A DNA stretch of 41,903 nt from Balamuthia mandrillaris (Eukaryota): positions 186,001 through 227,903 of the forward strand of contig JAVKOQ020000061.1 in NCBI GenBank assembly GCA_031835245.2. The letters run 5' to 3'. Below, in pieces: positions 4,101 to 41,903 of the stretch. The stretch's first letter is position 1. The number at the start of each line of letters is the position of its first letter. The translations under genes were made by a program, and so were the position numbers. The notes beneath the pieces are model-generated. The model saw only the letters and a program-made list of their open reading frames with translations, was not told where the DNA came from and did not search any database.

Positions 4101-5604
4101 GACATACTTCTGTTGATGATTGAAACCCTCTACGAGGTAAGCAATTTTTCTCTTTCATTAACCAAAGACTATAGTGTAAGCTAAGATGCTAACCGTGACT
4201 TTGTGGTAGTGCGTGGAAGCTTGTGGAGATAACGTGATGACTGAGGAACAGATGTTGCGTGCTTGTGAAACAATCCTCAAAGAGATGCGTGAGAGGGATG
4301 CTAGAAAAGCGCAACGCTTTGGTACGTTTTCATGATTTTAAAGAAGGGTGCACAATGTAGGTAACATGAGTTTTACCCTGTTATATAGAGGAAAAACAGG
4401 GAGAAGACTTTGATGAGGAAGAGGCCGAAAGGTTGGTCATTGAAAACGAAAAAGAAGAAGAGGTGTTGGCAGAGGTATATATTGTTAAATCGTTTTTTTT
4501 TCTAATTTCTGCCCATTTGGCTTGCTCTAACCCTTTTTGTCTCTCTTCATGGAATAGCTTGCTGAACTGGTCGGAAAGATCGCTAAGACTCATAAGGCAT
4601 CCTTCCTTCGCGCTTTCTCTGAAGGACTGTTGCCTGCCATCCTTCCTATGCTGGTTCGTCCCTTTCTCTGCGCTCTTTCCTCTTGTTTAGCCTGCTAACC
4701 TTGTTGCTGTCATTGTCACTGTAGCAACCAACCCAACCTCCTCACGATCGTCAAGTCGCTATTTGCATGTTTGACGATGTGGCTGAGTTTGCGGAGAGTG
4801 CTGCTCTTCCATTGTACCAACACTTCCTTCCCGCCATGGTGGAGTACATCGGAGACACGAATCCTTCTGTACGCCAAGCTGCAGTCTATGGGATAGGCGT
4901 TTGTGCCCAATTCGGAGGCGAGCACATGCACAGCTTGATTCCTGGTCTCTATCCTACCTCTTCCCTTCTCTCGATTTAGCTCTATGCTCATATCTGTACA
5001 AAAGATATCGTTAAAAGGCTGAACGTGGTGATCTCTCACTCTGAGTCCCGCTCGGAAGATAATGTGAACGCCACCGAAAACGCCATTTCTGCCCTTGGCA
5101 AGATCATCCAATTCCAATCTGCCGCTATCAACGCGGAAGAGGTGCTTGCCCTCTGGCTTTCCTTCTTGCCTGTCAAGGAGGACAAGATCGAAGCCATCAT
5201 TATTTATAACCAACTTTGCACATTCATTGAATCGTACACATTCGCCTCTCTCCTCTCCTCTCCTCTCCTCTCCTCTCCTCTCCTCTCCTCTCTCTCCTCT
5301 CCTCTCCTCTCCTCTCCTCTCCTCTCCTCTCCTCTCCTCTCCTCTCCTCTCCTCTCCTCTCCTCTCTCTGACTGACCCAATAACAAACATCAGCAATGCC
5401 CAATTGGTATTTGGAGGAGAGTATCAGAACGCACCCAAGGTGATGATGATCTTTGCGTTCATCCTGGGAAGCGATCTGGTGGACGAGGCCCTCACCCAAA
5501 GGATCGTGAAGTTGCTGAAGGGCCTTCCCTCTCAGCTGGTGGAAGGCGCGGTGGCCACCCTCCCCGCCGAACAAAAGAGCAAACTTGCTTCGTTCCTCGC
5601 CTAA
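1176..5604 (+). CDS. IPO5: Importin-5 / karyopherin beta-3 (Pse1/Kap121 family), multi-exon
   Basis: Consecutive ORF fragments joined by short GT-AG introns: [80 protein letters not shown] at 5602-5604. Confidence 0.95.
5248..5368. repeat. (CTCCT)n pyrimidine microsatellite in the last importin-5 intron
   Basis: Visible pentamer run; explains the spurious EERRG and SPLLS ORFs. Confidence 0.95.
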
Positions 5605-5660
5605 AACGACTTTCTTTCACAAACTACAACAACAACGTTTTTGCTTTCTTTTATTTAAAA

Positions 5661-5663
<3 letters not shown>

Positions 5664-5693
<30 letters not shown>
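5664..5693. repeat. (CT)n microsatellite between the convergent IPO5 and COMMD10 ends
   Basis: Visible dinucleotide run. Confidence 0.9.
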
Positions 5694-5696
<3 letters not shown>

Positions 5697-5753
5697 TTTT
5701 GCTTCTCTCTGTTCCTCCTCTGTGGTGGTGGATGGGGGGGGGGAGTTGCCTGT

Positions 5754-6359
5754 CTATCCAAGAGCATCAAGCTGGTCTTGAATGGCATCCAGCTGAGAAA
5801 AGAATTGGGAGAGCTCATCGTGAGTGAACTCCAGCCGTATCTTCTCGTTGCGGGCCAAGTCCGAGTTGCGCAGGTTCAGCTGGAACAAGGCCACGGGTTG
5901 CTTAAGCCGCTCTGCCGCGGTGTGCTCGCTGTGGTTGATGGCGAGGTTGAGCTGCCAGTCCACGTCCTGCACGGTGGAGGGCACCACGGTGCGGTTGCGC
6001 AGCTCCTCCAAGAGGTTGTCTTTGTGTTGATCCCACACGCCGCCAAAGGCCTCTATCTTGGAGCGTTTGAGGGAGGCGGCTTTCAGCTCCTCGGCAAAGC
6101 GAGGGGTGGTGAGGGTGTGGTAGGCCGCTTGCTCCAGGAGAAGAGAGCAAGAGTCTATGACGGTGTGCAGTTCCTGAAGCGTCAGCTGAAGGGCCTTTTG
6201 AAGGGCTTCTTCCTCGGCGTCGGTGAAAGGGCTCCCCTCGCGCAGATGCAATTTCTGAGCTATCCGGTCCAAAAACAAGGGAAACCTCTTGTCATCTATT
6301 CCATTTATCAGCTGTATGGCGGCCTGAAACCTCTCGCTCAGGTTGAATAAGGAAGTCAT
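5754..6359 (-). CDS. COMMD10: COMM domain-containing protein 10, intronless
   Basis: MTSLFNLSERFQAAIQLINGIDDKRFPLFLDRIAQKLHL...LEQAAYH...VDWQLNL...LEFTHDELSQFFSQLDAIQDQLDALG matches the COMMD10 pattern end to end. Start placed at the internal ATG at 6359. Confidence 0.92.
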   Translation of the reverse strand: MTSLFNLSERFQAAIQLINGIDDKRFPLFLDRIAQKLHLREGSPFTDAEEEALQKALQLTLQELHTVIDSCSLLLEQAAYHTLTTPRFAEELKAASLKRSKIEAFGGVWDQHKDNLLEELRNRTVVPSTVQDVDWQLNLAINHSEHTAAERLKQPVALFQLNLRNSDLARNEKIRLEFTHDELSQFFSQLDAIQDQLDALG

Positions 6360-6603
6360 TCTCTCTCTCTCGAGGGGGGCGGTACAACAACCCAACACCT
6401 CCTCCTCTCCTCTTTCTTTCTTCGTTGCTCCTGGTTCTCGCGTCGTCCCGAAAAATACAGATATCCGATATTCATCCACAATTATCCAATGTTATATTGA
6501 TAATCTGAATAATCGATTACAAAAGGAAAAAATTGGAGTCACGGAGAGAGAGAGAGAGAAGAGCACATCGGGGAAGCGCAAGGCAGAAGCAGCGCCCAAC
6601 ACG

Positions 6604-6636
<33 letters not shown>
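6604..6636. repeat. (TGT)n microsatellite just upstream of APC1
   Basis: Visible trinucleotide run. Confidence 0.9.
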
Positions 6637-6638
<2 letters not shown>

Positions 6639-6650
6639 TTTGCATGAGCC

Positions 6651-9600
6651 ATGATGGAGCTAAAGGCGGCACGTGCAGCCTACACGCCCTTCTCCGTGGC
6701 AGAGCTGCCGTTTCGCAGCGTCACCCCGTTTCAGCCGTTCGGCCGCCGTCTAGCTGAAGAGGAGGAAGGAGAGGAGGCGCACGGCAGCGAGCTCGAGGCC
6801 TGTCGCAGCTGCTACCTTTTGGCCCCTTCCACCGCCGTTGCAGCAGCGGGGGCACAGCTGCACCAGGAGGGGCTGACTGAAAGCGAGGTCTATGCCTATT
6901 GTAGCGGTGGAGACGCGGCCACCGCCAGTACCAAAATAGTGTGGAGCAGCGGTGGTCGCGTCATAAACACTTGGGAGGTAGGCGGAGCTGCCGCCGCTAT
7001 CTCTTCTTTCTCCTCCCCTTCCTCTGCGCGCCAACATCAACCCTCACGCACCTTGAGCTGGGCTTCCTTTCCTTCTTCGTTGGCCAGCAGCGGCCTCCCT
7101 GATAGCTTCTCTTTTTCTTCTTCTTCGTCGTCGAGCTTCAACAGCATTGGCAGCACTTGGTGGAAGGAAGCAGTGGGTGGTGGGGCGTTGAGACAGCAGC
7201 GGCGACGACGCTACCTGTGCGTGTTGCAGGCGGTAGCTCGTACTTTGACGCTGTGTGAAACGAACGAAGGCATGGAGAGCACCAGCGGAAGCTCCGATAA
7301 AGTGCAACACATCCCTCTTCCTTTCCTTGCGAGCTCCTTGTGGCGGCTTCCGCTCGGGCTTCTCGTGCAGCGCGCCGTTTCTTCTTCGTCTTCTTTTTCC
7401 AATTCTGAATTTCCAACTGCAGAACAAATCACCGCAGAGGCAGTGCCTGGTCTGTTCTCGTTGTTGCATCCGTTGGAAGAATTGCGGCCGGTGCCAACCA
7501 CCACCTCTCCCTCTTCCTCTGATGTGGGCACCATCATCTACAGCAGCGAACGATGGCCGCTCATTGTCAGCCATCATCAGCAGCATCACCAGAACCACCA
7601 ATCGCCTACAGAGTGCGAGATGGAAGGACACAGCCTGTGGATTCTGTTGCCTGCCCAGCAGTCTCATCAGCCTACTTACACAACCGCTATCAACAGCAAA
7701 AAAGCGGAGCGAGATTTCGGCCTTTCCAACAGTAGCGCTGACCCTGTGTTGGAGCCTCAGCTAGCCCTTCATCGCCTCTTTGTGGCAGGGCAAGGAGAAG
7801 GAGGTAAGGAACCAAAAGGAAAAGCCTCCTCTGTATTTATCATGCCCGATGATGGACAAAGCGATGAAAACCACATGAAGGGTCTTCTCTGCCTTCTTAT
7901 CCCAACACTTTCACATCATTTACGAGGTGGCCACCAATCCAACAAAGCAGAGGAAGGGGCAAGCAGCATTTTGGAAGTTTATAGCTTCAGCATTACACTA
8001 AGCCCATCCTCCAGTCTTCCCTCCTCTAAATATTCATCAGTTCCGTCAGCAGTGGCAGTACCTCAGTGCCTCGTCAAGAAAGTCCACAGCCAGGCGGCGC
8101 TTGCGGCTATGCCCATAGAACGAAGAGCCTCCAACAGTTCCAGCGACCTAGTGATACTCCACACCAATGGAAGCATTGGAGTTTATCGTCAGCTTAAGCT
8201 CTTGTTCCACTGCTCTTTCTGCGTGCCATCACCATTGTCGATGCCACCTGCTCCAGTAGTTGGGCTTTGCGACGCAATTGGCTCCCGCCTCAACTTGTTG
8301 CTGGGCGACCGCAACCAGACGCGATTACGCGTGACGGTGCCGGAGGTAGCCTCAAGTCCGCTGGTTCTACGTTGCCTTGCCTTCCTCTGTTCAGCGATGC
8401 ACCAGGAAGATGCTTTCACACTGCTCCGCCTTTATTTGTGCCACAACCAACAACATAACAATGTTGCATCATCCCTTCCTGCAGAGATAACAGACGGAGA
8501 GGAGGAAGTAGAGTGGCGCTCCCTGTGTCACGTCCTTCATTTCATCTTTGAACGACAAGCCACTGAGCCATATCACTCGCCAGCACCACAACAACTATCT
8601 TCTTCTATTGGCTCAGACCATAGTGACGATGATGACGGCGATGACGATTGGCAGTATCTACTTGGTAGCAACGTTCATCAAAGACACTCTACTTCTTTTT
8701 CAGCTCTTGACAAACACTGCACAATACCCAATGTAACTCGCAGTCACTCTTCTTCATCTTCTCCGTCCACGTCAAGTTACTCGCTTCTGGAGGAAGAATG
8801 GAACAGCAAGGTGGTGTTATTCTCCACTAGCTGTTCCACCATTCTGTTTGCCTTACATTCCATCTACGAGGAATCCAAATTGAACATTCTACATTCCTCT
8901 TATGTACAACGGCTCGGTACTTTGCTGATGGAGTTGGCGCAACGTCTTGCATGGCTCAATTATTTGGAGCACTATCGTCGCGACTTGGGGCTCAATGTTG
9001 TGGATGGAGAAGGAGCAGCTTGCACAAGTTGTTCCTTAGCCTCGTGCGAGGAAGAACCCGCTAGCATTTATTCATGGCTCCATCGTCGCTTGCGAGGGGA
9101 GATAGGATTAAAACCATTTACCTTTGCGATTCAGCCCTACGAGCAAGGAGAAGCGACAGCCGTCCCCTTGGTTGATGCTTCGCGGGTTGGTGACACACAA
9201 CTAACTCGCAAAGTCTGTTTGTTCTATGATATCCTCTGTGGTGGAGATGGCCACCACTATGCCAATGCTCACCCTAACAACCGTGGAAAAGGTGAAACGA
9301 AAGAGGAAAAAGAGAAACGGAAAGAAGAAAGCACAGCACCGGCGAGTAAGCCTGTTGTTTCCTACAACAAACCGTCGGAACGGTGGCAGCGAGTAGTGCT
9401 AAGCATGGCCCACGAGGGCTTCACCCTGGAGCAGCTCAACAATCTACCATTTGGCGTGGCGGTTCCCCTGCGGGATGCTATTCAGCAGTGTCGTGCTGGC
9501 AACATACCCACAGGTTGGCCTGTTGCTGCGTATCATCTGTTGGGAAGGAACGATCTGGCACCTGGCTTTAATGCTTCTCTGGTTGAACAACTGCCATCCC

Positions 9601-12600
9601 CGCACGACGCACAAGGGAGCGATGACACAATACTTGAAAACACAGGAATTTCCTTCTCTACAGGAAGAAACAGGCCCGCCACTACCGCTACAGGCAGCGC
9701 TGCTCCAACGACAAGTGGTGAGCAAGACATGATGGGCAAGAGGAATGAGTGGGATGGCCTGGGTGCCATCCTTGATAATGAAGCATGCAGACTGCGATTT
9801 GGACGAGATCAGCGGTTGCGAGACGTACACAAGATGCTGGCTTCGTCATACCCTCGCCGCATCCACCTTCAGGCCAATCAAGCAGCTGGAGCAATGGGTA
9901 TGGCTGAGCATGAGATCGCAGCCGCACAACAAAAGCAATTGCTTCGAATGGCACATCGTACGCTGGCACTGGCAGTGGGGCGAGGCATGTTCACCCTGTC
10001 CAGCACTTCCTCTCACCTGCTGGTGGAGCCCCTTCCCATACCTCTCATCGTGTTGGATGGTAAGGCGGGAGAAAGAGGCAAAACCTTGACTGTCACACTG
10101 GAAGCTGGTTCGGTACCGCCAGAGGTCCTTCGCTGGCCTGAGTTTCACAATGGGGTAGCCACCGCTCTTCGCATTGCTCCCTCTTATCAAGTAGCAGACA
10201 TGGATGACGATGAGTTGGCTAGCAGCGCCGGTGCTGGTTTTTGGGATCAACGCCAAGTGACTAGCACCTGGATAGTCTACAACAAGCAACTGCAGGCAGC
10301 AGCGGGAGGAGGATCGGATAACAACATGAGCAATGGTCATGCGGGACTGCTGATGGGTCTAGGCTTGCAAGGCCACTTATCGTCTTTATCTCAGACCAAG
10401 GTCTTTGACTATCTCAGCAAAGGCCATGAGCTAACCAGTGTGGGTATACTGCTGGGTATGGCTGCCTCCAAAATCGGAACGATGGAGGCCTCGCTGGCAA
10501 AACTCCTCAGTATCCATGTGCCAGCGCTGCATCCGCCCAGTTCCAGTGACCTAGAGGTGCCGCCTAGCGTTCAAACAGCATCATTGCTCGCGCTCGGCCT
10601 CCTCTACCAAGGCACTCTCCACCGCCATATGTGTGAGATTCTTCTGCAAGAAATAGGGCGCAGCCCTTTGGCAAAGCCCCATCCCGATCATGGTGGAAGC
10701 AGCAGTGGTGCTGAGCGAGAAGGTTTGGCCTTGGCTGCGGGATTGGCTTTGGGGCTCGTGGGGCTGGCCCAAGGTGGCAATGGTGCTACTATGAAACCTG
10801 CTGGTCTCAGCGACATGTGCATCGAGGACACTCTGTTCTATTACATGGAAGGAGGGAGACAAGGCGGTAACACCAAGCGGCCTCTTTCTACTGCATCATC
10901 ACTCGATGGAGGAGGTGTCTCCGCTCTGCATGATTGGCTGGCTCCTGATGCGGATGATACAGCAGCGACTGAGGACAGCGTTACGATGATGATAACGGGC
11001 AATGGGGCTTCTGATAGATCTCTTCATGGCAACAGTAATAACAGCAAAAATAGCCTTGTCCTCTTGAGCAGTAGACGTCCTGTAGATGTGGACGCAACTG
11101 CAGCAGGCGCCATTCTGGCCCTAGCCCTCTTGTTCTTGAAAACAGAGCACCGAGTGGTAGCTCAGCGGCTTGCCCCGCCCACCACACCTTACTTGCTAGA
11201 TGGCATTCGACCCGATCTTCTCTTGCTGCGTGTGCTCGCTCGCAACCTTGTTCTGTGGCACTCCATACAACCCAATAAAGGTTGGATGGACTCTCAAATG
11301 CCACAGGTTGTCCTCCGTTTTGCGGCCAAGGAAGATGCAAAGAGGACTCGAGGCCCCATCTTTGTGGAGGAACAGGATGACGATGAAGACGTGACCTCAA
11401 GCAGCAACTATGCGTATGCGGACACGCTGCGTCAGGCGCATATTAACATATTAGCAGGGGCATGCCTATCGTTGGGCCTTCGCTTTGCCGGTTCTTCCGA
11501 TGGAGCAGCCTACGCTCTCTTGCTGGAACAGGTTGAATATATGCAGAAGCGCCTGCGGGTGGCTCCCGAGCAGGACTATCCTATGGTGGAAACCTGCCTC
11601 AACATGGCCACCCTCTCACTGAGTTTGGTAATGGCAGGAACGGGCCATCTGCCCACTCTTCGCCTGTTAAGATCGCAGCACCGCCGTGTACGCCCTCGTC
11701 ATCCTCATAATAGATCTCAACGACAGGAAGAGAACTTGACGGATCTGTTTTCACGCAACGGCAGCAGGGAGGCGGTATCATACGGCACTCATATGGCTAC
11801 AAATATGGCATTGGGTTTGCTATTTCTGGGAGGGGGTAGATACAGCCTTGGCACTCAAAACCATCAGATAGCAGCGCTGGTATGCGCTCTCTACCCTCGC
11901 TTCCCTCTGGATTGCCAAGACAATAGATACCATCTTCAAGCCTTCAGGCACCTCTACGTCCTTGCCTGCGAGGAACGCTGCGTGCAAGCTGTGGATGTAG
12001 AGACAAGGCAGCAATGCTATGTCCCAATCAGAGTGGACCTTATGACCAGTTCTGCTCGCAAAGGAAGCAGCCTAGACCTCACTGCACCTTGCCTCCTTCC
12101 TGAGTTCCGTTTCATTCAGCGCATGTCCATTGCCAGCCCTCGTTATTGGAGCTACAACATCGTTTTGGCCCCCTCACCAGGTGATGACGACACTAGACAT
12201 TCTTCTGCTCAGGCCAAGACGTTGCTTCGCCATCGTATCATCTTTGTCAAGCGCAAAACAGGTTTTCTGTCATACTCTCAAGACCCAGCTGGCCTTCGTA
12301 GCATTCTATGCCGTCCCTTCCCCCAGTATCAGCACCACCTTCAAAATCCTGCCTGCCATTTATTCCAACAAAAACAACGCCCATCTGCGATGAGTGCCGC
12401 GTGGAAGCAACAAAATCGCCTTCTTTTCATCAAGTCGTTCTCACAGGACCCCAACATACTTGCCTTTGCCAACCATTTTGCTCTGCCACAATCATGTGCA
12501 AACCCCACTGGTGCTTCAACCTCTCCATTCACCCAACTGCACAACGAAGAAGCTGCCAACTTCCTCGCCTCCTTCTGTACTGCAGCACTTTATGAATGCC

Positions 12601-13283
12601 TAACCCAAGAAAAACCTGAAGTGCTGCAGACTTATCTTCATCTATATCGTATTATCCAACAGCTTCGTAACTATTCTGCCATCTGTTCAGCTTCCTCTCC
12701 CTCTGGTCACCTTGCAGAAAGGGAAGTGGCAGCACTCACTCAATCGCTTTTGAATGTAAAAATCATATTGGCCTACTATTCTTCTTCTGCATCATCGTCT
12801 TCTTTCGCTTCTGATACCTACAATGATGATTTGCCTGCCACTGCTTCTTCTCCTGCACCCTTGCTACAAGCAATAATGTTGGCAGAGCTACAAGATAGCG
12901 TTAATAGCTTCTTTGATGAACTTCATTTTTGTTTGCCAACTTCACATGCAGCCGCCCTTCATCCATTATCACCATCATCACAGCTTCCACAGGCTCACAA
13001 CCCCACTCCCTTACAACAATACATTCTCTCTTTCCTGATGAAGGACGAAGCCACACCGATATCCTCCTCCACAACCACACAACGTTTGTTTGGATGCTTC
13101 CTACAGTACTATGACATTCCCTATCCTCCCTCTCTTATAAGCAATTTTGCGATACCTTCATCTTCCTCCTCAGCACGGAGAGGAGTCTCAATGTTGCGGT
13201 TAGCTCGTCTTCTTCCCCATAGTCCTCCGCATGTATTGGCCACTATCCTCCTTGCTCTTCGGCCAAAAACACCTTTGCAATAA
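6651..13283 (+). CDS. ANAPC1: Anaphase-promoting complex subunit 1, single 2210-codon ORF
   Basis: LFSLLHPLEELRP, WPEFHNGVATALRI, HAGLLMGLGLQGHL, PC-repeat region, YGTHMATNMALGLLFLGGG, DNRYHLQAFRHLYVLA are characteristic APC1 motifs. Confidence 0.96.
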   Translation: MMELKAARAAYTPFSVAELPFRSVTPFQPFGRRLAEEEEGEEAHGSELEACRSCYLLAPSTAVAAAGAQLHQEGLTESEVYAYCSGGDAATASTKIVWSSGGRVINTWEVGGAAAAISSFSSPSSARQHQPSRTLSWASFPSSLASSGLPDSFSFSSSSSSSFNSIGSTWWKEAVGGGALRQQRRRRYLCVLQAVARTLTLCETNEGMESTSGSSDKVQHIPLPFLASSLWRLPLGLLVQRAVSSSSSFSNSEFPTAEQITAEAVPGLFSLLHPLEELRPVPTTTSPSSSDVGTIIYSSERWPLIVSHHQQHHQNHQSPTECEMEGHSLWILLPAQQSHQPTYTTAINSKKAERDFGLSNSSADPVLEPQLALHRLFVAGQGEGGKEPKGKASSVFIMPDDGQSDENHMKGLLCLLIPTLSHHLRGGHQSNKAEEGASSILEVYSFSITLSPSSSLPSSKYSSVPSAVAVPQCLVKKVHSQAALAAMPIERRASNSSSDLVILHTNGSIGVYRQLKLLFHCSFCVPSPLSMPPAPVVGLCDAIGSRLNLLLGDRNQTRLRVTVPEVASSPLVLRCLAFLCSAMHQEDAFTLLRLYLCHNQQHNNVASSLPAEITDGEEEVEWRSLCHVLHFIFERQATEPYHSPAPQQLSSSIGSDHSDDDDGDDDWQYLLGSNVHQRHSTSFSALDKHCTIPNVTRSHSSSSSPSTSSYSLLEEEWNSKVVLFSTSCSTILFALHSIYEESKLNILHSSYVQRLGTLLMELAQRLAWLNYLEHYRRDLGLNVVDGEGAACTSCSLASCEEEPASIYSWLHRRLRGEIGLKPFTFAIQPYEQGEATAVPLVDASRVGDTQLTRKVCLFYDILCGGDGHHYANAHPNNRGKGETKEEKEKRKEESTAPASKPVVSYNKPSERWQRVVLSMAHEGFTLEQLNNLPFGVAVPLRDAIQQCRAGNIPTGWPVAAYHLLGRNDLAPGFNASLVEQLPSPHDAQGSDDTILENTGISFSTGRNRPATTATGSAAPTTSGEQDMMGKRNEWDGLGAILDNEACRLRFGRDQRLRDVHKMLASSYPRRIHLQANQAAGAMGMAEHEIAAAQQKQLLRMAHRTLALAVGRGMFTLSSTSSHLLVEPLPIPLIVLDGKAGERGKTLTVTLEAGSVPPEVLRWPEFHNGVATALRIAPSYQVADMDDDELASSAGAGFWDQRQVTSTWIVYNKQLQAAAGGGSDNNMSNGHAGLLMGLGLQGHLSSLSQTKVFDYLSKGHELTSVGILLGMAASKIGTMEASLAKLLSIHVPALHPPSSSDLEVPPSVQTASLLALGLLYQGTLHRHMCEILLQEIGRSPLAKPHPDHGGSSSGAEREGLALAAGLALGLVGLAQGGNGATMKPAGLSDMCIEDTLFYYMEGGRQGGNTKRPLSTASSLDGGGVSALHDWLAPDADDTAATEDSVTMMITGNGASDRSLHGNSNNSKNSLVLLSSRRPVDVDATAAGAILALALLFLKTEHRVVAQRLAPPTTPYLLDGIRPDLLLLRVLARNLVLWHSIQPNKGWMDSQMPQVVLRFAAKEDAKRTRGPIFVEEQDDDEDVTSSSNYAYADTLRQAHINILAGACLSLGLRFAGSSDGAAYALLLEQVEYMQKRLRVAPEQDYPMVETCLNMATLSLSLVMAGTGHLPTLRLLRSQHRRVRPRHPHNRSQRQEENLTDLFSRNGSREAVSYGTHMATNMALGLLFLGGGRYSLGTQNHQIAALVCALYPRFPLDCQDNRYHLQAFRHLYVLACEERCVQAVDVETRQQCYVPIRVDLMTSSARKGSSLDLTAPCLLPEFRFIQRMSIASPRYWSYNIVLAPSPGDDDTRHSSAQAKTLLRHRIIFVKRKTGFLSYSQDPAGLRSILCRPFPQYQHHLQNPACHLFQQKQRPSAMSAAWKQQNRLLFIKSFSQDPNILAFANHFALPQSCANPTGASTSPFTQLHNEEAANFLASFCTAALYECLTQEKPEVLQTYLHLYRIIQQLRNYSAICSASSPSGHLAEREVAALTQSLLNVKIILAYYSSSASSSSFASDTYNDDLPATASSPAPLLQAIMLAELQDSVNSFFDELHFCLPTSHAAALHPLSPSSQLPQAHNPTPLQQYILSFLMKDEATPISSSTTTQRLFGCFLQYYDIPYPPSLISNFAIPSSSSSARRGVSMLRLARLLPHSPPHVLATILLALRPKTPLQ

Positions 13284-32204: not shown

Positions 32205-32820
32205 CGTTGATTCTGCCCAAATTAGAAAAGTACACAGTGAGCCAGTCTTTGGTTTGCACAAAGGTGCCAAACCAGGCCATGATTGTGATGAAGAGGTAAA
32301 GTGGTTCCTGCTTTCCATAAGTTCCATAAAGGCATAAAACTTTTTGTTTGAGGAAATGATATTAAGCTTGAGTCATGATCAAAGCGTCAGTGATGCTTGC
32401 TTTTTGCAAATAATGCATTAAGATTTCTCTCATATGCATTTTTCCAAGGTAAGCTAAGGCCTTGTTCTCTTTAGGAAAAGATTCCTTGGTTTTTGGTTTT
32501 GAATCTTTTTATATATAATTATTATTGCTTTGCTAGCAGCAAACCAGATTAGGCAAATGTAATCAGTGTGCCCAACTTTTTGTTCACTTTAAACAATGCA
32601 ATAGTGTGGAGGAGGCATTGCAAGGTTTATAAAAGGAAAGAAGTGATTATTTGCACCTTGTTTGTTTACATAAAGAAAAGTGATCAAAACGGTAACAAAG
32701 ATATTATGATAATCAATCACCAATAAACTTTTTGATGGTCCAGCACTTTGGAGAAGTGTGGTGATGAGAAAAAGGAATGAAAGCAGAGGCTTTGGCTTTG
32801 GCACAACGCTTGCAATGGCC
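32205..32820. pseudogene. Degenerate, internally rearranged relic of the same transposase family as 34968-37194
   Basis: Nucleotide similarity seen by eye. About 32210-32352 matches 36730-36880 in the same orientation, about 32355-32681 matches 36664-36330 inverted (including the intron), and about 32682-32817 matches 36131-36330 in the same orientation. Stops and indels throughout. Confidence 0.85.
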
Positions 32821-32966
32821 AATGCAAGCAAAGTTGTAAACAAGTCTGGAGATTATGGGCAGCAAGAGCAAGTTGGAAGCATGGAAGTTCTTCTGCATTT
32901 TATCAATCTTTGGAAGTAATGTAAACGTAAGGAAATGATAAGAGAGGAAAAGGAAAGGAAAGGATT

Positions 32967-33108
32967 GCTAGATGATATAAAGTTAGTCTGAAAGCTCATT
33001 CAACACCTTTCACTTGTGAATTAAAAAACAAGTGGATGAGGTGTTGTTATAAAGTTCACAAGTGAAAGGTATTGAATGAGCTTTCAGACTAACTTTGTAT
33101 CATCTAGC
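32967..33108. mobile_element. 142-bp foldback / MITE-like element with 54-bp inverted arms
   Basis: 32967-33020 is the reverse complement of 33055-33108 with 2 mismatches; 34-bp spacer. Confidence 0.75.
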
Positions 33109-33834
33109 TAAGCTCAGTTGTTGTCCAACCAAACATCTTCCATTTGTCAAGAAGCTATGCCAAAACTATTCTCTTGTTCCTCTTTCTCCTTCAACTGCAT
33201 ACCTATCAAGGCCTTGAGCTATGGCTTCCTGCTGCCTATTGATAAAGGAACCTGGAGCAGGACTGCCTTTGGTACTTTTTGCACTTTCTTCTACAATAAG
33301 ATTATTGATCTCCTAGTTGAGAGATTCAATCAGGTCCCTGAATCACTGAGAGTGAGAGTATGCCTACCTCAGAGAGCTTACAACCCTTGTGAGAAACACT
33401 GTAGTTACAATCTAACAGCAGTGCCACTTGACTGTTGGTTTGCTGCTTAATGTCATCTACACTTCCTCCAAAAACTGATTTAGGGTGTCCCCTTTGACAA
33501 AACACTCAGGTTTCAAAGCAGGCTTCCATGGATGATTATAGTTTAGAGTCCCCAGGACAAACAAACCTTTGATATATATGAGCACTATTAATAGCCAATA
33601 CTGTTAACTCGGACCAGTAACACAAGAATGCAAGAAAGTGAACAAGACCAAGGAATAGGCTTTAATGGAAAGAAAGTGTCATGACAGTGTGTGTGTGTGT
33701 ATGTGTGTTTGTTACTTGTTCCTGTTCCAAGAGAAAAAAAAAAGAGAGAAAGAGAAAAGAGTTCTTAATCCACTTCATTATGATCATCAAAGACAGGAGG
33801 AGGCTCAAACGGATGTTCCACATGAGTAGAAGAG

Positions 33835-34260: not shown

Positions 34261-34728
34261 CTGTTGTAGCCCTTTCATGGCATTTCTAGTGTATTCTGTG
34301 GTTTTGTCTAACTTGTGCTGTTCTTCTTCTTTGGCAATGTGTTCAGTCTCAGGAAAGCTGGGGATGTCGAGCTCAAGTTGACAGGATTGTTGGAGCATGC
34401 AAAAGTACTCCTGTTGTGCCTTACAAAGCTGTTCACAGAGGGTATTGAGAGCGGCTGTGGCTTCCATGGTGTGGGTAAAAGAGGATTTAATCACTTATGT
34501 AAGCCAAAAAAAATGTTGGTTGAATCCAACCTCAAGAATAAAAGAGTCAGCAATGAGACAAGAAGTATATTCAAGAGAATAGAGGAAGGACAATGAGAGT
34601 GAATCTCCGATGTTGCTTCAAAGTACACTGAGAGAAAGGGGAAAAGGGAGAAAGGAAGGATGGAGAATATAACACAATACAAACAAAAAGGAGAATCTCC
34701 TTTTGCTATTCACTTGGATTATATGGCA

Positions 34729-34960
34729 AAAAAAAATATTTTTCAGGTCTTAAAAAAAATATTTTTCTTAAAAATTAATTTTCAATCAAAAAAATAATAT
34801 TTTTCCTTTAACAAAAATAATAAAAAAAAATGTTTTTTAATTTCTAAAAATATTTTTTATGGTTTGAGAACATTTTTTAAGTTCTAAAAATTATTTTTTA
34901 TAAAGCATTATTAAAAGACATTTAATATAAAAAATCTACTATTAAACATTAAACAAAATA
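34729..34960. repeat. Extremely AT-rich tract downstream of the transposase with an imperfect ~28-bp direct duplication
   Basis: ttttttaa(t/g)ttctaaaaa...tttttt at about 34833 and 34873, among alternating A and T runs. Confidence 0.7.
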
Positions 34961-34967
34961 CAAAGAT

Positions 34968-37194
34968 TTATGAATGCTGTTTTTCGAATCTATCTAATTC
35001 TGCATAAATTTGAGCTTTGTAAGCAAAAGATAATTTGTGATCTGAAGTTAATGCTAAAGGACCCCAAATAAAAGATGCTTGATGTATGTTTTGTGTTTCC
35101 TTTTGTAAAAAATAACATTGACCTCATTTTGTATACCATAATACAGTAGCTTTACAAGGTGTTGTGGAATGAACAAATGCAAGCCAAAAGTCCTCTGAAG
35201 AACCATCTTTTGGACAAATAGCATAAATGTGATTGGCTAAAATATGGAAAGGTATGCAAGTAGCACAACCAGATGTTGTGACTTGAGATGAAAATTCGAT
35301 TGAAGAGGAGGAAGCAGCTGAAGTCAAAGAAGTGGATGCAGAGAATGAAGGAGTATGTTGTCGATTTAAAGCAGTCATAGGTTGAAACAAAGTAAAAAAA
35401 GGATTATCCAAAGGGGATGAAGGGTGTTGTAAATTATAAATCAATGCTTGTAAGCGAAGTTTGGAAGAAAGCAAAATAGTAGAAAAAGTAGATTGAGTAC
35501 CTCGAATGCATTCTTCTTCTACACAAGATTTGGGTATCAAATGAGGAATATGAGTGGAATATAAAGATAGATTTGGAAATCCTTTTATCAATGAAATGGG
35601 TTTGCTCCAAGGAGCATGAATGTTGGATTTCACTTGTAAAATGGGCCATATTGGAGGGCAGGTCATTGTAGGAGTGGGATAAATAAATTTGAAAAATAGA
35701 GGTTGGGAATGACCTTCAAGATTTACCATGAAAGGATGCAACCAACCTTTGAAATCCCAGACCCATTCCAAAGGATGTAATTCTGGACGAGTTTCATCCG
35801 TTAAATAAGAAGAGTTAATGAATGTAAAGAATTGCTCCAAGCTTTCAATATCAAATTTGAGTAATGCTTTACGAAAGGTAGAAAACATTTGATCCACATC
35901 TTCATGAGTATGTCCAGGTGGCAAAAAGCAAAGTTTGATCTTGGAAAACATCTTGAGATGCACCAACCAACATAAAAAGGCCAATAAATACTTGTTTTTG
36001 TTTTCTTTATAGCAGTTGTCAGCTTGAAGGTAGAGGGTTTGGTTGGGATGGGCTCAAATGGGTTGTTGTAATGTTTGCATGAGAAAGTAAAATAAATGAC
36101 TAATTACTAAATTGGCATCACGTGACCACTGATCAAAATGATAACGCAGATAACAATGATGATGCTCATGATCTATCAGTCCAAAACAAGAGATACCAAT
36201 AAACTTTTTGATGGTCCAGCCTTTTGGGGGAGTATGATGATGGGGAAGAGGAATGGCCTCTGTATAATCCATAATGATGGAATTGTATTTGAAAGGAGAG
36301 GCTTTGGCTTTAGCACGATGCTTGTAATACTTCTCTTTGTGTAAAAAAACAAAGTGCAAATGATCACTTCGTTCCTTTTGTAAGCCTTGCAATGCCTCCA
36401 CACTCTTGCATTGTTTAAAACGAACTAGAAGCTGAGCACATTGATCACATTTTCCTAATCTGGTTTGCTAATACAGAAAGCAATAACAATTATTCATCAA
36501 CAGGTTGTTAGAATAAAAACAATGAATCATTCCTTTCTTTTGACAAACTCTCTCAACAAACAAAGCTTACCTTGGAAAAATGAACATAAGAGAAATCTTC
36601 ATGCAACATTTGCAAAAAGCGTGCATAACTGATGCTTTGATCATGTCCCAGGCTTAATACCATTTCTTGATACAAGGCTTTTCGATTCAATATCATTGGA
36701 ATCTGAATGACTTCAGAGTTTGGCAAGGATTCTCCCATATTGGCAAAGTACACTGTGAGCCAGGCTTTGGTTTGCGAATAGGTGGTGGAGTGCCAAACCA
36801 GGCCACGATTGTGATGAAGAGGTAAAGTGGCTCCCGTTTTCCACAAGTCCATGCAGGCATAAAACTTCTTATTGGAAAGGGCCAGCCATAATTGGATTGC
36901 TTTGTAACAAACCAGATGACCAGCCAAAAGCAATCGTTGCTTGGGGGGCCTGACAGCTCTGGTCTCTTGATAAGGGCCATAAGAAAGAAACAAGCAATCC
37001 ACAAGAAATTTGGTTCTGGCTTGTTCTGAGTCCAGTGTCCAATAATAGGTGCGCATCTCTTGAAAATCCTCTGATGAAATGCTGGAAAGACAGTATTGTT
37101 GACAGCAGTAACTGTGCTTTGAAGTCCGGATATGTTGCTCTGAAAAAAACCGACGTGCAGTGCTTTTCAGTTTGGATGGTGGTTGGAAGGCCAT
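34968..37194 (-). pseudogene. Sola1-like DDD transposase with one intron (36468-36570) and two in-frame TGA codons
   Basis: The ORFs 36553-37194, 36054-36401 and 35124-35984 join into one frame: CCQQYCL...FSK|QTRLGKCDQC...SIIMDYTE...QPI*AHPNQTLYLQADNCYKENKNKY...CFLPPGHTHEDVDQMFS...LWYTK*GQCYF...KQHS-TAA (34970-34968). Putative triad: D(IMD), D(ADN), D(EDVD). The intron position is mirrored in the relic at 32.4-32.5 kb. The Sola1 label is from motif memory. Confidence 0.85.
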
Positions 37195-37487
37195 GGTGCT
37201 CTTTTTCTACTGCAATGATGTCCTATCTAAAGAAACCTCATAAGTCAGCCAGAAGAATCAATAAAAGCTAAACACTTTACAAGAAAAAAAATGGCGGCAG
37301 AATAGATAAATAATCAAAAGGGTATAAGAGGGTATTGGCTGTGCTGTATGACACAAGATCTGCCCTTCACAATGAAGGTTGCTAAATTCTTTGTTGAAAG
37401 GAAAGGGCGCTTTTGCATCATATGACGCACTCAACACTCTTGCTTGCTAGAAAAATTTGAAAAAATTTGCTTTTCATTGGATAGGAA

Positions 37488-38483
37488 GGATAGCCAATGC
37501 CTTTCATACAATAGTAGAGAAAGCCGAAGAGGGCTGATCTGCACTGCATGGCATAGCCAATGCCAGCCATACAAAAGAAAAGAGAGCAGAAAAGGGCTGA
37601 TCTGCACCGTATGGCGCAGCCCATGCCTGCCTATCAAAAGAAAAAATGGCGGAAAAAGGCTGATCTGCGCCATACGGTGCAGCCCATGCCCCTCATACAA
37701 AAGAAAAGAGAGCGGGAAAGGGCTGATCTGCACTATATGGCGCAGCCAATGCCTGCAAAACAAAAGAAAAAATTGAGTAAAAGGGCTAATCTGCACCGTA
37801 TAGTGCAGCCCATGCCTGCCATACAAAAGAAAAAATTGTGAAAAAAGGCTGATCTGCGCCATATGGCGCAGCCCATTCCTGCCATACAAAAGAAAAGAGA
37901 GCGGAAAAGGGCTGATCTGCGCCATACGGCGCAGCCCATGCCTGTCATACAAAAGAAAAGAGAGCAGAAAAGGGCTGATTTGCACTGTACGGTGCAGCCC
38001 ATGCCAGCCATACAAAAGAAAAGAGAGCAGAAAAGGGCTGATCTGCGCTGTACGGTGCAGCCCATGCCAGCCATACAAAAGAAAAGAGAGCAGAAAAGGG
38101 CTGATCTGCGCTGTATGGCGCAGCCCATTCCTGCCATACAAAAGAAAAGAGAGCAGAAAAAGGCTGATCTGCGCCATACGGCGCAGCCCATTCCTGCCAT
38201 ACAAAAGAAAAGAGAGCAGAAAAGGGCTGATCTGTGCTGTACAGCGCAGTCCATGCCAGCCATACAAAAGAAAAGAGAGCAGAAGAGGGCTGATCTGCGC
38301 TGCACGGCGTAGCCAATGCCAGCCATACAAAAGAAAAGAGAGCAGGAAAGGGCTGATCTGCGCCGTACAGCGCAGCCCATGCCTGTCATACAAAAGGGCA
38401 GATCTGCACCATACAGCCGATGCCAGCCATACAAAAGAAAAGAGAGTGGGAAAGGGCTGATCTGCGCTGTACAGTGCAGCCAA
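37488..38483. repeat. Tandem array of a 63-bp unit (16 cores), each with an 18-bp palindromic core and an A-rich spacer
   Basis: Cores start at 37539, 37602, 37665, 37728, 37791, 37854, 37917, 37980, 38043, 38106, 38169, 38232, 38295 and 38358 (exact 63-bp period), then 38404 and 38462. Unit approx. GGGCTGAT-CTGCGCCGTACGGCGCAG-CCCATGCCAGCCATACAAAAGAAAAGAGAGCAGAAAA. Confidence 0.97.
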
Positions 38484-38965
38484 CGCGCTAGTCTCGAAAA
38501 TTGAATGCAAGCAAAAAAACAAAAGAAAAAGGGATAATGGCATAGCAATGCTGGTCTCTCTTTCAAACAAAATGCAGGCTGAACAGATTTGACAACTGAG
38601 AACAATACAAACCGTTATGCCTCACAGTCCTTTCACAAGTTGAACTCAAAAGAAAGAATCATGAGGTTGGATGTAAGAAAGCACATTCAAGCCCCTTTAT
38701 TATGAGAACAAAACGCTTTTGAATTTCCTTCAACTTGCTGTCACTTCTTCCAGCACCATATCAGCGATGCTCTCTGTCATTGGTTGCCCTCCACAAAGTC
38801 TGCAGCAAACCACAACGATTTGACTACCAATTAAATGAAATTTGAAAGAAAAAAAAGAGGGCCAAAAGCAAAACAAACTCCCAAAATTTTAGTTTGTCAC
38901 AAAAGTGCACAACCATTCACACCGTTCACACATATTCCTTGCTTTTTATTTTTGCTGTTGTGGTT

Positions 38966-41903
38966 ATGTCGGACAACAAGAGATTGACAGTGAAAGAACT
39001 GCGGCAAAGGATCGACGACCTCAGTGGACAATGGACCACCAAGGACTCCAAATCTGTCTTATCACACAAATTGCAAATGCTACAAACTCCTACGTCGAAT
39101 CCTTCTTCCAACCAACCTTCGGACCTCTCGGAAACAGATGAAGGCTCATCTTCCTCCCCATCCAACAGGTAAAACAACTTGCTCTCCATTTTGGTTTTTC
39201 TGGTGAGTGATTGAGGTTTTTTATGATAGCACTCCAACAAGAAATGATTGGATTTTGCGCGAGAGCGACTTGGAAGCTGTGCATCTATTTTGTGCACCGG
39301 ATGGCGCAGACGAGGAAACCAAAGAGGTGGCAGAACTTTGTAAAACTCGGCTTCAGGAGGGGACTCGTTTGGTTCCGTTGAAAGCTATCACTATGAAAGG
39401 TTTGTGCTTTTATTTTTGTGTTATAGTCAACAGCTGAACGGCCACTATTCGCCTTGCTTCTTTCTTCCTCAAGGGAGAAGGGCCAGTCCAGCTCCATCCT
39501 ACTTTTGCCCTTTCTCTTCTCTCATCCAAATTATTATTTGAAGGGATGGTGTTGACTGCGCCGTACAGCGCAGATCAGCCCTTCAGCTCATTTGCTGCGC
39601 CGGATGGCACAGTTCAGCCCTTCAAACCTCCAGTACTTTAGAAGGGAAATCATTGGCTGCACCATATGATGCAGCTCAGCTCTTCAAATCCTCTGGTATT
39701 TTTGAAGGAAGGGTGTTGGCTGCACCATATGGCGCAGATCTGCCCTTCAGATCAACACTTTCCTTTTATAGTTCGGGTGATGATTGCGCCGTATGGCGCA
39801 GATCACAACTGCTGCCTTAATTTCTTGTTTGGCTGGCAAGAAAAGGTTATAGGCTGCGCCGTACGGCACAGCTCATGCCTTTGGCCTTTTTCTCTCTTGT
39901 TGACTAGTTGAAGGGCATTGGCTGCGCCATACGGTGCAGCGAATACCCTCCACAGTTTTTCATGCCTTCTTTTAACTTTGTACTGTCATTAACTTCGTTT
40001 GTTTTATCAGGTTGGCATCGACCTCTAAAACCAGAGGGGTTGAACAAGCTGCTGGCCACATTCAACTCAGGCGGCATTTTGTCTTTTGATGAACGCTCTT
40101 CTTTATTATTGATGGAACTGCCTTCAGCTCTGTGGGTGCATCCAGAAAGCAATCAACAAGAATATGTATGTCTTGGAGGTAACCATCGATGTGCAGCAGC
40201 CCACGTATTGTACTGTGAAAACTCCCCAAAGCTGAAGGAGTTAACTTGGAGGGCCAAAGTGCTGCCATTTGATGGCAAACAACTTCCAAGTGTGGCTGTC
40301 TTGGACAAGGTACAATTCCTTGGAGTTTTCTGTTGCTTTTTCTGTTTTTTAACAAGGTGACTTACTCATATTTCTTGGAAGTTGTCTGCCTGGGACAACC
40401 TGGTGTTGTCCGAAGGAGTCAATCAAGAGACAGAATGGGATATGGTCCGTTTTGTGTACAATCATCTCACGAAAACACCAGAGGAGCTGTTCCATTATCT
40501 GGTAGGCCTTCTTTGGTTGCAGGCAAGCTTTCTAAAATGATTGCTCATTTTTTCTCTTTTGTGTTGGGTGGGTTTTGTATTTTAGAATTCACAAACTGCC
40601 TCCCAAGATGCCCATAATGCTCTCACCTTTGATCGTGTTTGACGTTTGAAAACAGTGGCAAACAAAATGCAGAAATTCCCAGAGTCTTGGAGTTATATTC
40701 AGGAGAAGGACAAAGAGAAGGGGGGCTGGGTGTTTACTCCTTACCACTTCAGAGAGAAAATGCCAAGCTCCTTATCAGATGAAACCTTGTTGGCAGCCTT
40801 GAAAGAGATATGGGCAAGGCACCTCGAGGATCCCAAGGAAGAATGTTCTGTAACCAACTTCAAAAGATTGGTAAGCTGCATTGCAATCTTTTCTTTCTCT
40901 ATCTTGTCACTACTACTTTTCCTCATGAAACGTGCATACATGCAGATGTGGAAACACATTGGTCGAAAAGCTATGCATGAAGAACTGGAATTGTATCATA
41001 CTGAAAAAGAGATTCCTTTAGCCCACTTGGTATTGATTTCTATAGCATTGAAGTTTAGTTAACATTTCCTTTTGCTATCTTTCATTCATTTATTCATTCC
41101 TTGCTGCTAGCAACACATACCCTCCGATGAACCAGCTTCTCCTCCATTCCACTCAAACACCACTACACCTCAACCCTCTCCACCTCCTTCACCAAAACCA
41201 TCTCATGATATTGAAAGGAAAAAAAAAAGAAAAAGCAAAAAACAACAACCAAAGACCTCTTCCAAACACCAGGCCAAAAAAGCAAAAAACCATCATCGTG
41301 GCAGACCCAAACTCAACACTCCTCCTCAACCCTCCAAACAATTGGCCCACCAACTCAACAAATGGGGAAAGGACGTGCTTGCTTCTCATTCCCCTCCTAC
41401 CAAGTTCAAAGTGATCATTTATGATAATTTACCAACACATGCTCCCTTGATGCTTGATTCCTTGGGAGTACACTGCCAAAGTAAGTCTTTTTTGGGTTAT
41501 TTTTTCCAAAGAACTCAGATTGCTGTCTGTCTAATTTTCTCTCATTCTTCCCAGATCATCATGTGGAAAGGGTTTTGTTGATAACTACCCGTTATAATCA
41601 CTTGCACTTGGCCATGAATCAAATCAATGCCTATAAACAAAAGCAACGTCAGCTTTTGATTAACTTGAAGCTAGAAACAGTTCTTGTTTTTGGGTACAAA
41701 CCTCACCATTCCAACCATAACAACAAACCACAATGGTGTGAGAATGGCATCTTTGTGGCAGTGTGGAACAAAGGCCAAACACAGTTGCAGGATGATTCTA
41801 GTTCGATTACTTCTTCTCTGTTGGCCTTGGAGACATGGCAACCAACTTCAGTGGTGATTCCAATCAAGGGACCTCAAGCTCAGGAAGGACAAGTGGCTGA
41901 TCA
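38966..41903 (+). pseudogene. Spliced gene for a SAP/HeH-like + ParB/Srx-like + AT-hook protein; one in-frame TGA; 3' end beyond the window
   Basis: Phase-consistent GT-AG model: 38966-39168, 39230-39399, 40011-40309, 40382-40501, 40586-40870, 40946-41029, 41111-41480, 41555->41903. Motifs: LTVKELRQRIDDLSGQWTTKDSKSVLSHKL; RLVPLKAITMKGWHRPLKPEGLNKLLATFNSGGIL; YVCLGGNHRCAAA; LSAWDNLVLSEGVNQETEWDMVRFV; HRGRPK. TGA at 40640-40642. Confidence 0.75.
39540..39945. repeat. Cluster of seven copies of the same 18-bp palindrome with diverged spacers, inside intron 2 (39400-40010) of the ParB-like gene
   Basis: Cores start at 39556, 39595, 39657, 39720, 39784, 39854 and 39922. The ATCAGCCC-type flank lies 3' of the core, so these are inverted relative to the main array. 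Confidence 0.9.

Follow-up and report, generated by a model that had tools for sequence, protein, structure and literature searches.

A putative ParB_N-like accessory gene beside a palindrome array in a dead, probably Sola1-like transposon of Balamuthia mandrillaris

Introduction

What does a repeated 18-bp palindrome do between two divergent genes of a eukaryotic transposon, and which protein reads it? The question is raised by a 41,903-nucleotide stretch of Balamuthia mandrillaris DNA (contig JAVKOQ020000061.1, positions 186,001 to 227,903; hereafter the window), the right-hand part of which holds a transposase gene and a spliced accessory gene on either side of a palindrome array. A preliminary description had proposed that this part is a ParB/parS-like module carried by a Sola-like element. 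The copy in the window is a dead member of a multi-copy family of cut-and-paste DNA transposons, probably of Sola1 type, and relatives in metagenomes repeat its layout with palindromes of their own. The accessory protein may be derived from ParB, read the palindrome of its own family and mark the element as self, with anti-silencing as the likely purpose; from the sequence comparisons reported here, we put the probability of this reading at about one half.

Results

Two divergent genes of a multi-copy family

The core of the transposase (Table 1) matches Pfam DUF7869 (E 8e-43), a family that we take, from motif likeness, to be Sola. Its three Asp residues (codons 36267-69, 36018-20 and 35892-94) are invariant in nine of nine aligned homologs, and the nearest long relatives in the databases share 40-45% identity with the transposase (10 matches). 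The junctions of the divergent accessory gene are GT-AG; the same splicing is seen in NCBI protein P0001, which derives from another copy and supports the first four exons, and P0003, P0005 and P0008 cover the remaining ones. The originally described arrangement, a DDD transposase and a spliced gene diverging around a tandem array (63 bp x 14.4), was thus confirmed, and a methyltransferase-like tail of the accessory gene, missed at the time, was added to it.

In-frame TGA stops interrupt the transposase at 36054-56 and 35124-26 and the accessory gene at 40640-42, the last being open in contigs of two DNA runs and in P0003. With stops in both genes, this copy is dead. The terminal inverted repeat (TIR) was not identified at the left end of the element in the window, and the right end lies beyond the window.

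Eight Balamuthia proteins (P0001-P0008) encoded on contigs of seven different lengths, together with 221 variant contigs from one run, indicate a multi-copy family. P0002 and P0003 include mistranslated sequence of the palindrome-bearing intron, so the intron array travels with the gene. A single contig, from another Balamuthia copy, fuses positions 35616-35642 of the transposase to position 38630 beyond the array; it is likely a deletion derivative, and it ties the transposase and ParB-side halves together in another copy. An exon of P0005, P0006 and P0008 is missing here at about 41030, where contigs break, so that either this copy suffered a deletion or the assembly has a gap there. A phmmer search of 1.84 billion proteins returned three near-identical Balamuthia-type proteins and one unrelated-looking match. 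Two raw RNA runs of about 12.9 million records each gave 0 and 2 reads at the locus and no splice joints, which is too few to gauge expression.

A palindrome kept while its flanks diverge, and decaying at CpG

The 18-bp palindrome is real and far above chance, but the 18-mer quoted in the preliminary description is a consensus without an exact copy in the window. This consensus, CTGCGCCGTACGGCGCAG, has 17 matches at up to three mismatches, with 0.01 expected and none in 100 shuffles. When up to six mismatches are allowed, 25 sites are found between 37339 and 39939 (0 exact). Of these, 16 fall in the array, and the second intron of the plus-strand gene holds seven; coding exon 2 contributes one more, and a single site lies upstream of the transposase. 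The earlier observation that the palindrome recurs inside the ParB-like gene therefore holds. The tandem repeat itself spans 37492-38396, with 85% matches. The intron copies are inverted relative to the array copies, and non-CpG palindrome positions in these seven copies are 91% identical (192/210), compared to 40-60% in their flanks. A palindrome that is kept while its flanks diverge argues against a plain minisatellite.

Among the 24 sites tallied (37339 was left out), 55 of 192 CpG positions were changed, compared to 12 of 240 other positions (Fisher p 9e-12, computed on array units that are not independent), and 54 of the 55 changes were C>T or G>A. These changes probably reflect the decay of methylated CpG. 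The rest of the element is depleted as well, with an observed/expected CpG ratio (o/e) of 0.04-0.36 (700-bp bins, palindrome-rich centre excluded) compared to 0.56-0.75 in host DNA at 28-31.5 kb. Repressive 5-methylcytosine has been reported in the related amoeba Acanthamoeba, in a paper that does not mention Balamuthia (PMC12344493). In the stems, G>A, which breaks RNA pairs, is yet as frequent as C>T (18 each), and this counts against a structure-forming repeat.

Two further observations concern single positions. The outer CpG pair position (C4/G15) was changed in 5 of 46 cases, compared to 14-19 of 46 at the three other symmetric positions (37539-39939), which could reflect protein contact or lower methylation. 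At 39802, contigs in two runs exit the window after a palindrome and continue in AT-rich sequence absent from the window, as would be seen at another element site or in a rearranged copy.

Related elements repeat the layout with other palindromes

A metagenome scan yielded 62 transposase loci, eight of which extend 4.6 kb or more upstream of the transposase match. Four of these eight (L010, L013, L020 and L021) carry a spliced accessory-gene homolog in divergent orientation, and the start of another lies at the contig end of L016. L010, L013 and L021 are complete elements of 5.5-5.8 kb with two genes only, and their TIRs start with AACC and match at 23-28 of 30 positions. A 4-bp target-site duplication was seen in none of four two-ended relatives, for which the metagenome contigs may join ends of different insertions. 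In L020, an element of the L021 family (2056-7592) lies within the palindrome-type intron of another family's ParB-like gene, a nested insertion.

The hidden Markov model of the relatives matches 209 positions of the Balamuthia accessory protein (E 6e-9 at Z=1), and the hhalign score between them is 40.5, compared to a maximum of 26.3 in 60 shuffles; by BLASTP, the proteins are 20% identical. The Balamuthia gene and its relatives also have in common a phase-1 intron in the same Gly codon, which bears palindromes in the window, L010 and L013. The repeated layout of the relatives and the contig that joins 35616-35642 to 38630 support the view that the three parts belong to one element type and are not a chance nesting.

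The palindromes of the different families sit in AT-rich non-coding flanks, in introns and upstream of the transposase. In a strict palindrome scan of the 43 loci that were 2 kb or longer (the 19 shorter ones being left out), eight loci were flagged, as were one of 21 phage controls and one of four host stretches. We relied on the six flagged loci with 5-9 sites, as L036 is microsatellite-like and L057 has only three sites. A AACGAGGCGCCTCGTT-like palindrome occurs five times in L010, and L013 has one perfect and two decayed copies of GACGTGGCGCCACGTC. In L021, GGTAAGCG-N4-CGCTTACC is present nine times with a variable 4-base centre, and L008 has seven copies of GGAAGAAACTTTCTTCC. Across the relatives, the spacing of sites is 28, 37-40, 39-43, 63 or 86-93 bp, or they are dispersed; the phasing described for the window is thus not general, and helical phasing (63 bp = 6 turns) was dropped as a general feature.

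A lenient scan (3 mismatches in 14) was also abandoned, its null being too high, and two single exact palindromes in viral contigs were chance-like. Viral contigs were searched for sequences related to the transposase and to the L013 exon, and none was found. More distant DUF7869 loci have repeated palindromes of their own (L037, 2254-2590; L043, 2267-2460; L057, 3358-3550; L007, 130-290), with no accessory gene in view on their short contigs.

A ParB_N-like front and a methyltransferase-like tail

A five-sequence family profile aligned to a phage ParB_N set over 80 collinear columns (score 30.9, E 1.8e-4), a score that exceeded all of 113 shuffles in which the motif was kept. The phage ParB and methyltransferase reference sets had been chosen by motif pattern, with four of five spot-checked members matching the expected Pfam family, and motif-kept and masked shuffles were run for that reason. 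We assign the front of the accessory gene, with moderate confidence, to a ParB_N-like domain; the ParB label of the preliminary description is upheld at the level of the family profile, but not for the single protein, which is not significant.

Arg, Gly, G-N-H-R and a downstream Asn are invariant in five of five aligned proteins and, in a profile alignment to canonical ParB, fall at or near Caulobacter R60, G79, R104 and N136, which are needed for CTP (cytidine triphosphate) binding (PMC8367383). Counterparts are thereby found for about four of the seven class-I residues given in that paper. The replacement of GERR by GNHR changes the residues at the E102 and R103 positions, and Q58, S74, E135 and R139 are without a conserved counterpart in this alignment. 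Phage ParB_N of the GxHR type fits the family better (E 2e-4) than canonical ParB does (E 6e-3). In the ESM Atlas, similarity was 0.92 to a ParB_N cluster (on 35% of members) and 0.94 to DUF3723 and unnamed eukaryotic (animal) clusters.

AlphaFold models reached a predicted local distance difference test (pLDDT) value of 33.5 from the single sequence and 45.3 from nine rows, and the order of helices and strands in the latter is as expected for ParB_N. For this low-confidence model, Foldseek found nothing similar at E 0.001 (the ParB chain that it ranked 49 is meaningless), and VIA-align nothing at Z 5. When the L013 exon was compared with phages by tblastn, all E values were between 0.2 and 10, with three distinct ParB-like annotations among the best 15 of 23 matches. 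No ParA or motor partner was seen in the part of the element inside the window or in the three complete relatives. By the tests run, which found no ParA, no helix-turn-helix (HTH) match and only partly kept CTP motifs, the element is not a ParABS member.

In the tail of the accessory gene, the motifs follow the order seen in beta-class N4C/N6A methyltransferases, and the catalytic motif is degenerate here and in the relatives; the motif-I-like end of the tail falls past the window, in P0005. The ESM Atlas points to N6_N4_Mtase for this region (0.83-0.84). We weakly favour calling the tail methyltransferase-like.

Discussion

Which protein reads the palindrome

In the reading that we prefer, the accessory protein would bind the palindrome of its family as a dimer, and the bound protein would mark copies of the element as self. 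Marking may hold off host silencing by CpG methylation, an anti-silencing purpose like that of plant VANC, or keep the two divergent genes active, and the methyltransferase-like domain, presumably catalytically dead, would serve as a binding or interaction module. A comparison of L008 with L013 bears on the identity of the binder. Their transposases are 88% identical in the core and 77% in the N-terminal part and their TIRs are near-identical, and yet the palindromes in the same intron are unrelated; this speaks against the transposase being the binder. L010 and L013 have similar palindromes and ParB-like proteins that are 62% identical. The shared palindrome of L014 and L016a (95% identical transposases) and the related ones of L005 and L010 (86%) fit either binder.

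Several results weigh against this reading. The uncoupling argument rests on one pair, in which the ParB partner of L008 lies off the contig. The accessory gene was not seen at four of the eight long loci (L029, L036, L038 and L047), and arrays occur at L037, L043 and L057/58 without a visible ParB gene, on contigs too short to tell. L010, L013, L020 and L021 come from two assemblies, are AT-rich and apparently belong to one host, so that they represent about three families from what is probably one host lineage and not four independent cases. As to the domain, masking of the GNHR block reduced the profile score to 16.7, against a shuffled maximum of 16.0; the Balamuthia protein alone was not significant against ParB_N (E 0.26 and 0.2) and had no match in Pfam, PHROG, NCBIfam or PDB sequences; and the conserved helical region that follows the domain could not be aligned with the HTH in a set of 47 canonical ParB sequences. 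For the tail, the match to methyltransferases is weak (hhalign E 0.005-0.012) and confined to the motif-I region, and the Balamuthia tail matches that of the relatives at E 0.22. Finally, methylation was deduced from decay, and the element evidently succumbed to it here.

A stronger mechanistic version of the same explanation is parS-like loading, in which the accessory protein would load onto the element at its palindromes, as a nucleotide-gated clamp, and then slide along it. In favour of this version are the invariant residues (Arg, Gly, GNHR and Asn), which fall on or close to part of the CTP pocket, and the sites of 14-26 bp within the gene and next to it. Such a clamp nevertheless seems unlikely, given that GERR is replaced by GNHR, that several CTP contacts have no counterpart, and that the family is closer to GxHR-type phage ParB_N than to canonical ParB and has no HTH match. 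It is equally doubtful that eukaryotic transposons use a nuclear, ParB/parS-like identity code, in which the clamp would spread from the family palindrome, the dead methyltransferase domain would block or read host methylation, and the pair of protein and palindrome could be swapped independently of transposase and TIR.

The palindromes might instead be internal sites of the transposase, used for auto-regulation or transpososome assembly, with an accessory protein that acts without them. A site is indeed found immediately upstream of the transposase gene, both in the window and in relatives, the likeness of the L014/L016a and L005/L010 palindromes would be expected, and some arrays occur at loci without a visible ParB gene. 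We consider this quite unlikely in view of the unrelated palindromes of L008 and L013, with their close transposases and TIRs, and because the palindromes do not resemble the TIRs and, in L010, L013 and L021, lie at a distance from the element ends.

It is improbable that the arrays are neutral minisatellites, or hairpin or cruciform repeats, without a protein partner. The 63-bp units are 85% alike including their spacers, about 10 flanking bases are common to these units and the intron copies, every copy here is decaying and the 4-base variable centre in L021 is loop-like, all of which neutral repeats could produce. They would not account for a palindrome kept while its flanks diverge, for unrelated palindromes at homologous places in different families, or for stem G>A changes as frequent as C>T.

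Partition or drive, with the protein tethering excised copies to chromosomes or biasing segregation as first suggested, can almost be set aside: the two-helix N-terminus (in low-confidence models) and the bare RGRP motif taken for an AT-hook in the Balamuthia protein would suit it, but SAP/HeH has no Pfam match, neither motif was seen in the relatives (for SAP/HeH, in their N-terminal frames), only two genes, neither of them ParA-like, were seen in the complete relatives of 5.5-5.8 kb, and no episomal form of such elements is known.

Comparison with known systems

The layout has already been published for seaweed transposons (2025), and the Balamuthia element extends a known kind. Sola1-1_Ec32 of Ectocarpus has a gene of ParB-like and N4C/N6A methyltransferase type on the strand opposite its Sola transposase, proposed to bind and modify its own sequence (PMC12477816). 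Its AACCG termini resemble the AACC termini of the metagenome relatives, whereas it is 21.5 kb long with 282-bp TIRs, compared to 5.5-5.8 kb and TIRs of about 25 bp in the relatives. Compared by description only, it further differs in that the accessible part of the paper mentions no palindrome array and that the methyltransferase motifs of Balamuthia are degenerate.

The claim that no case paired with a palindrome array had been described does not stand. PAG3 of a red-algal (Bostrychia) Plavaka (EnSpm) element has an N-terminal ParB-like domain (HHpred E 0.29) and tandem inverted-repeat arrays adjoining the gene, and the parS analogy and self-binding were already proposed for it (Petroll et al., bioRxiv 10.1101/2025.02.11.637652). 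Both elements thus have a ParB-like gene beside an inverted-repeat array. PAG3 differs in belonging to another transposase superfamily and in being fused to a putative 2-oxoglutarate oxygenase, its methylase being encoded by a separate gene, PAG2.

A functional analogue is VANC of Arabidopsis VANDAL elements, an anti-silencing accessory protein with family-specific motifs in tandem repeats (PMC5735166). As in our elements, these motifs lie in introns and upstream of the transposase and turn over fast between relatives. In contrast, they are 9-bp and non-palindromic, no homology is known, and anti-silencing was shown for VANC and is only suggested for the Balamuthia element.

With bacterial ParB/parS, the element has in common a ParB_N-like domain, clustered palindromes in or near the gene and partly retained nucleotide-binding residues. 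It differs in having GNHR and not GERR, no HTH match and no ParA seen, and in that the Balamuthia gene is spliced, has a methyltransferase-like tail and lies inside a transposon. Eukaryotic ParB-HTH-methyltransferase fusions of another clade have been described (Iyer et al., PMC4738411). Our search, which subscription papers lay outside, found neither a report of this element from amoebae nor one that includes a test of binding.

Genomic setting

The window is intron-rich eukaryotic DNA, with exon queries 99-100% identical to NCBI proteins of Balamuthia mandrillaris, and host genes occupy about 1-32 kb. A stop-free frame of 2211 codons at 6648-13280, unusual for an intron-rich genome, encodes what we take to resemble anaphase-promoting complex subunit 1. 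Starting at about 32 kb, the CpG o/e falls from 0.56-0.75 to 0.04-0.3, which marks a cluster of transposon remains. A rearranged relic of the same transposase family lies at 32209-32860 (77-87% DNA identity), of which one piece has the orientation of 36195-36876 and another the opposite one, and a 142-bp hairpin at 32967-33108, with 65-nt arms that are 91% complementary, resembles a miniature inverted-repeat transposable element. Fragments at 32823-33201 match P0004 and P0002; P0004 has a weak zf-RVT match, suggesting a non-LTR (long terminal repeat) retroelement that is also beside or in other accessory-gene copies. The NCBI names of P0006, P0007, P0012 and P0004 (erythroid differentiation factor, vacuolar transporter chaperone, ATP binding and RNase H) look like misannotations of transposon-derived proteins.

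Table 1. Coordinates of the features of the element in the window.
Feature	Position	Strand	Remarks
AT-rich stretch with 20-bp repeats past the transposase stop	34720..34967		likely subterminal region, by comparison with the AT-rich ends of L010, L013 and L021
DDD transposase gene (DUF7869, Sola1-like)	34968..37194	-	exons 37194-36571 and 36467-34968, one intron
Single decayed palindrome upstream of the transposase start	37339..37356		6 transitions
63-bp tandem array between the two genes	37492..38479		A-rich spacers; 16 palindrome sites, 37539-38479
Accessory gene, divergent, spliced, runs off window end	38966..41903	+	eight exons in window: 38966-39168, 39230-39399, 40011-40309, 40382-40501, 40586-40870, 40946-41029, 41111-41480, 41555-end
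Palindrome inside coding exon 2	39292..39309		4 mismatches
611-nt phase-1 intron	39400..40010	+	7 palindromes (39556-39939); position common to L010 and L013, also palindrome-bearing
ParB_N-like core (putative)	40011..40501	+	GGNHR at 40175-40189; conserved Arg, Gly, Asn
Degenerate beta-class N4C/N6A methyltransferase-like region (putative)	41417..41903	+	IYDNLP at 41417-41434 in the DPPY place

Significance

Elements of this kind were proposed only in 2025; the proposal drew on algae and on weak domain matches, with no test of binding, and Balamuthia adds an amoebozoan to them. In compact elements, the relatives provide a natural set of a few protein-palindrome pairs, and in one case the palindrome appears to have been switched on an almost unchanged transposase, so that self-reading and the need for a nucleotide can be tested with cognate and non-cognate controls. 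If self-reading proves true, this would be a second, independently evolved anti-silencing system of transposons after VANC, and possibly a case of a ParB clamp working on eukaryotic chromatin.

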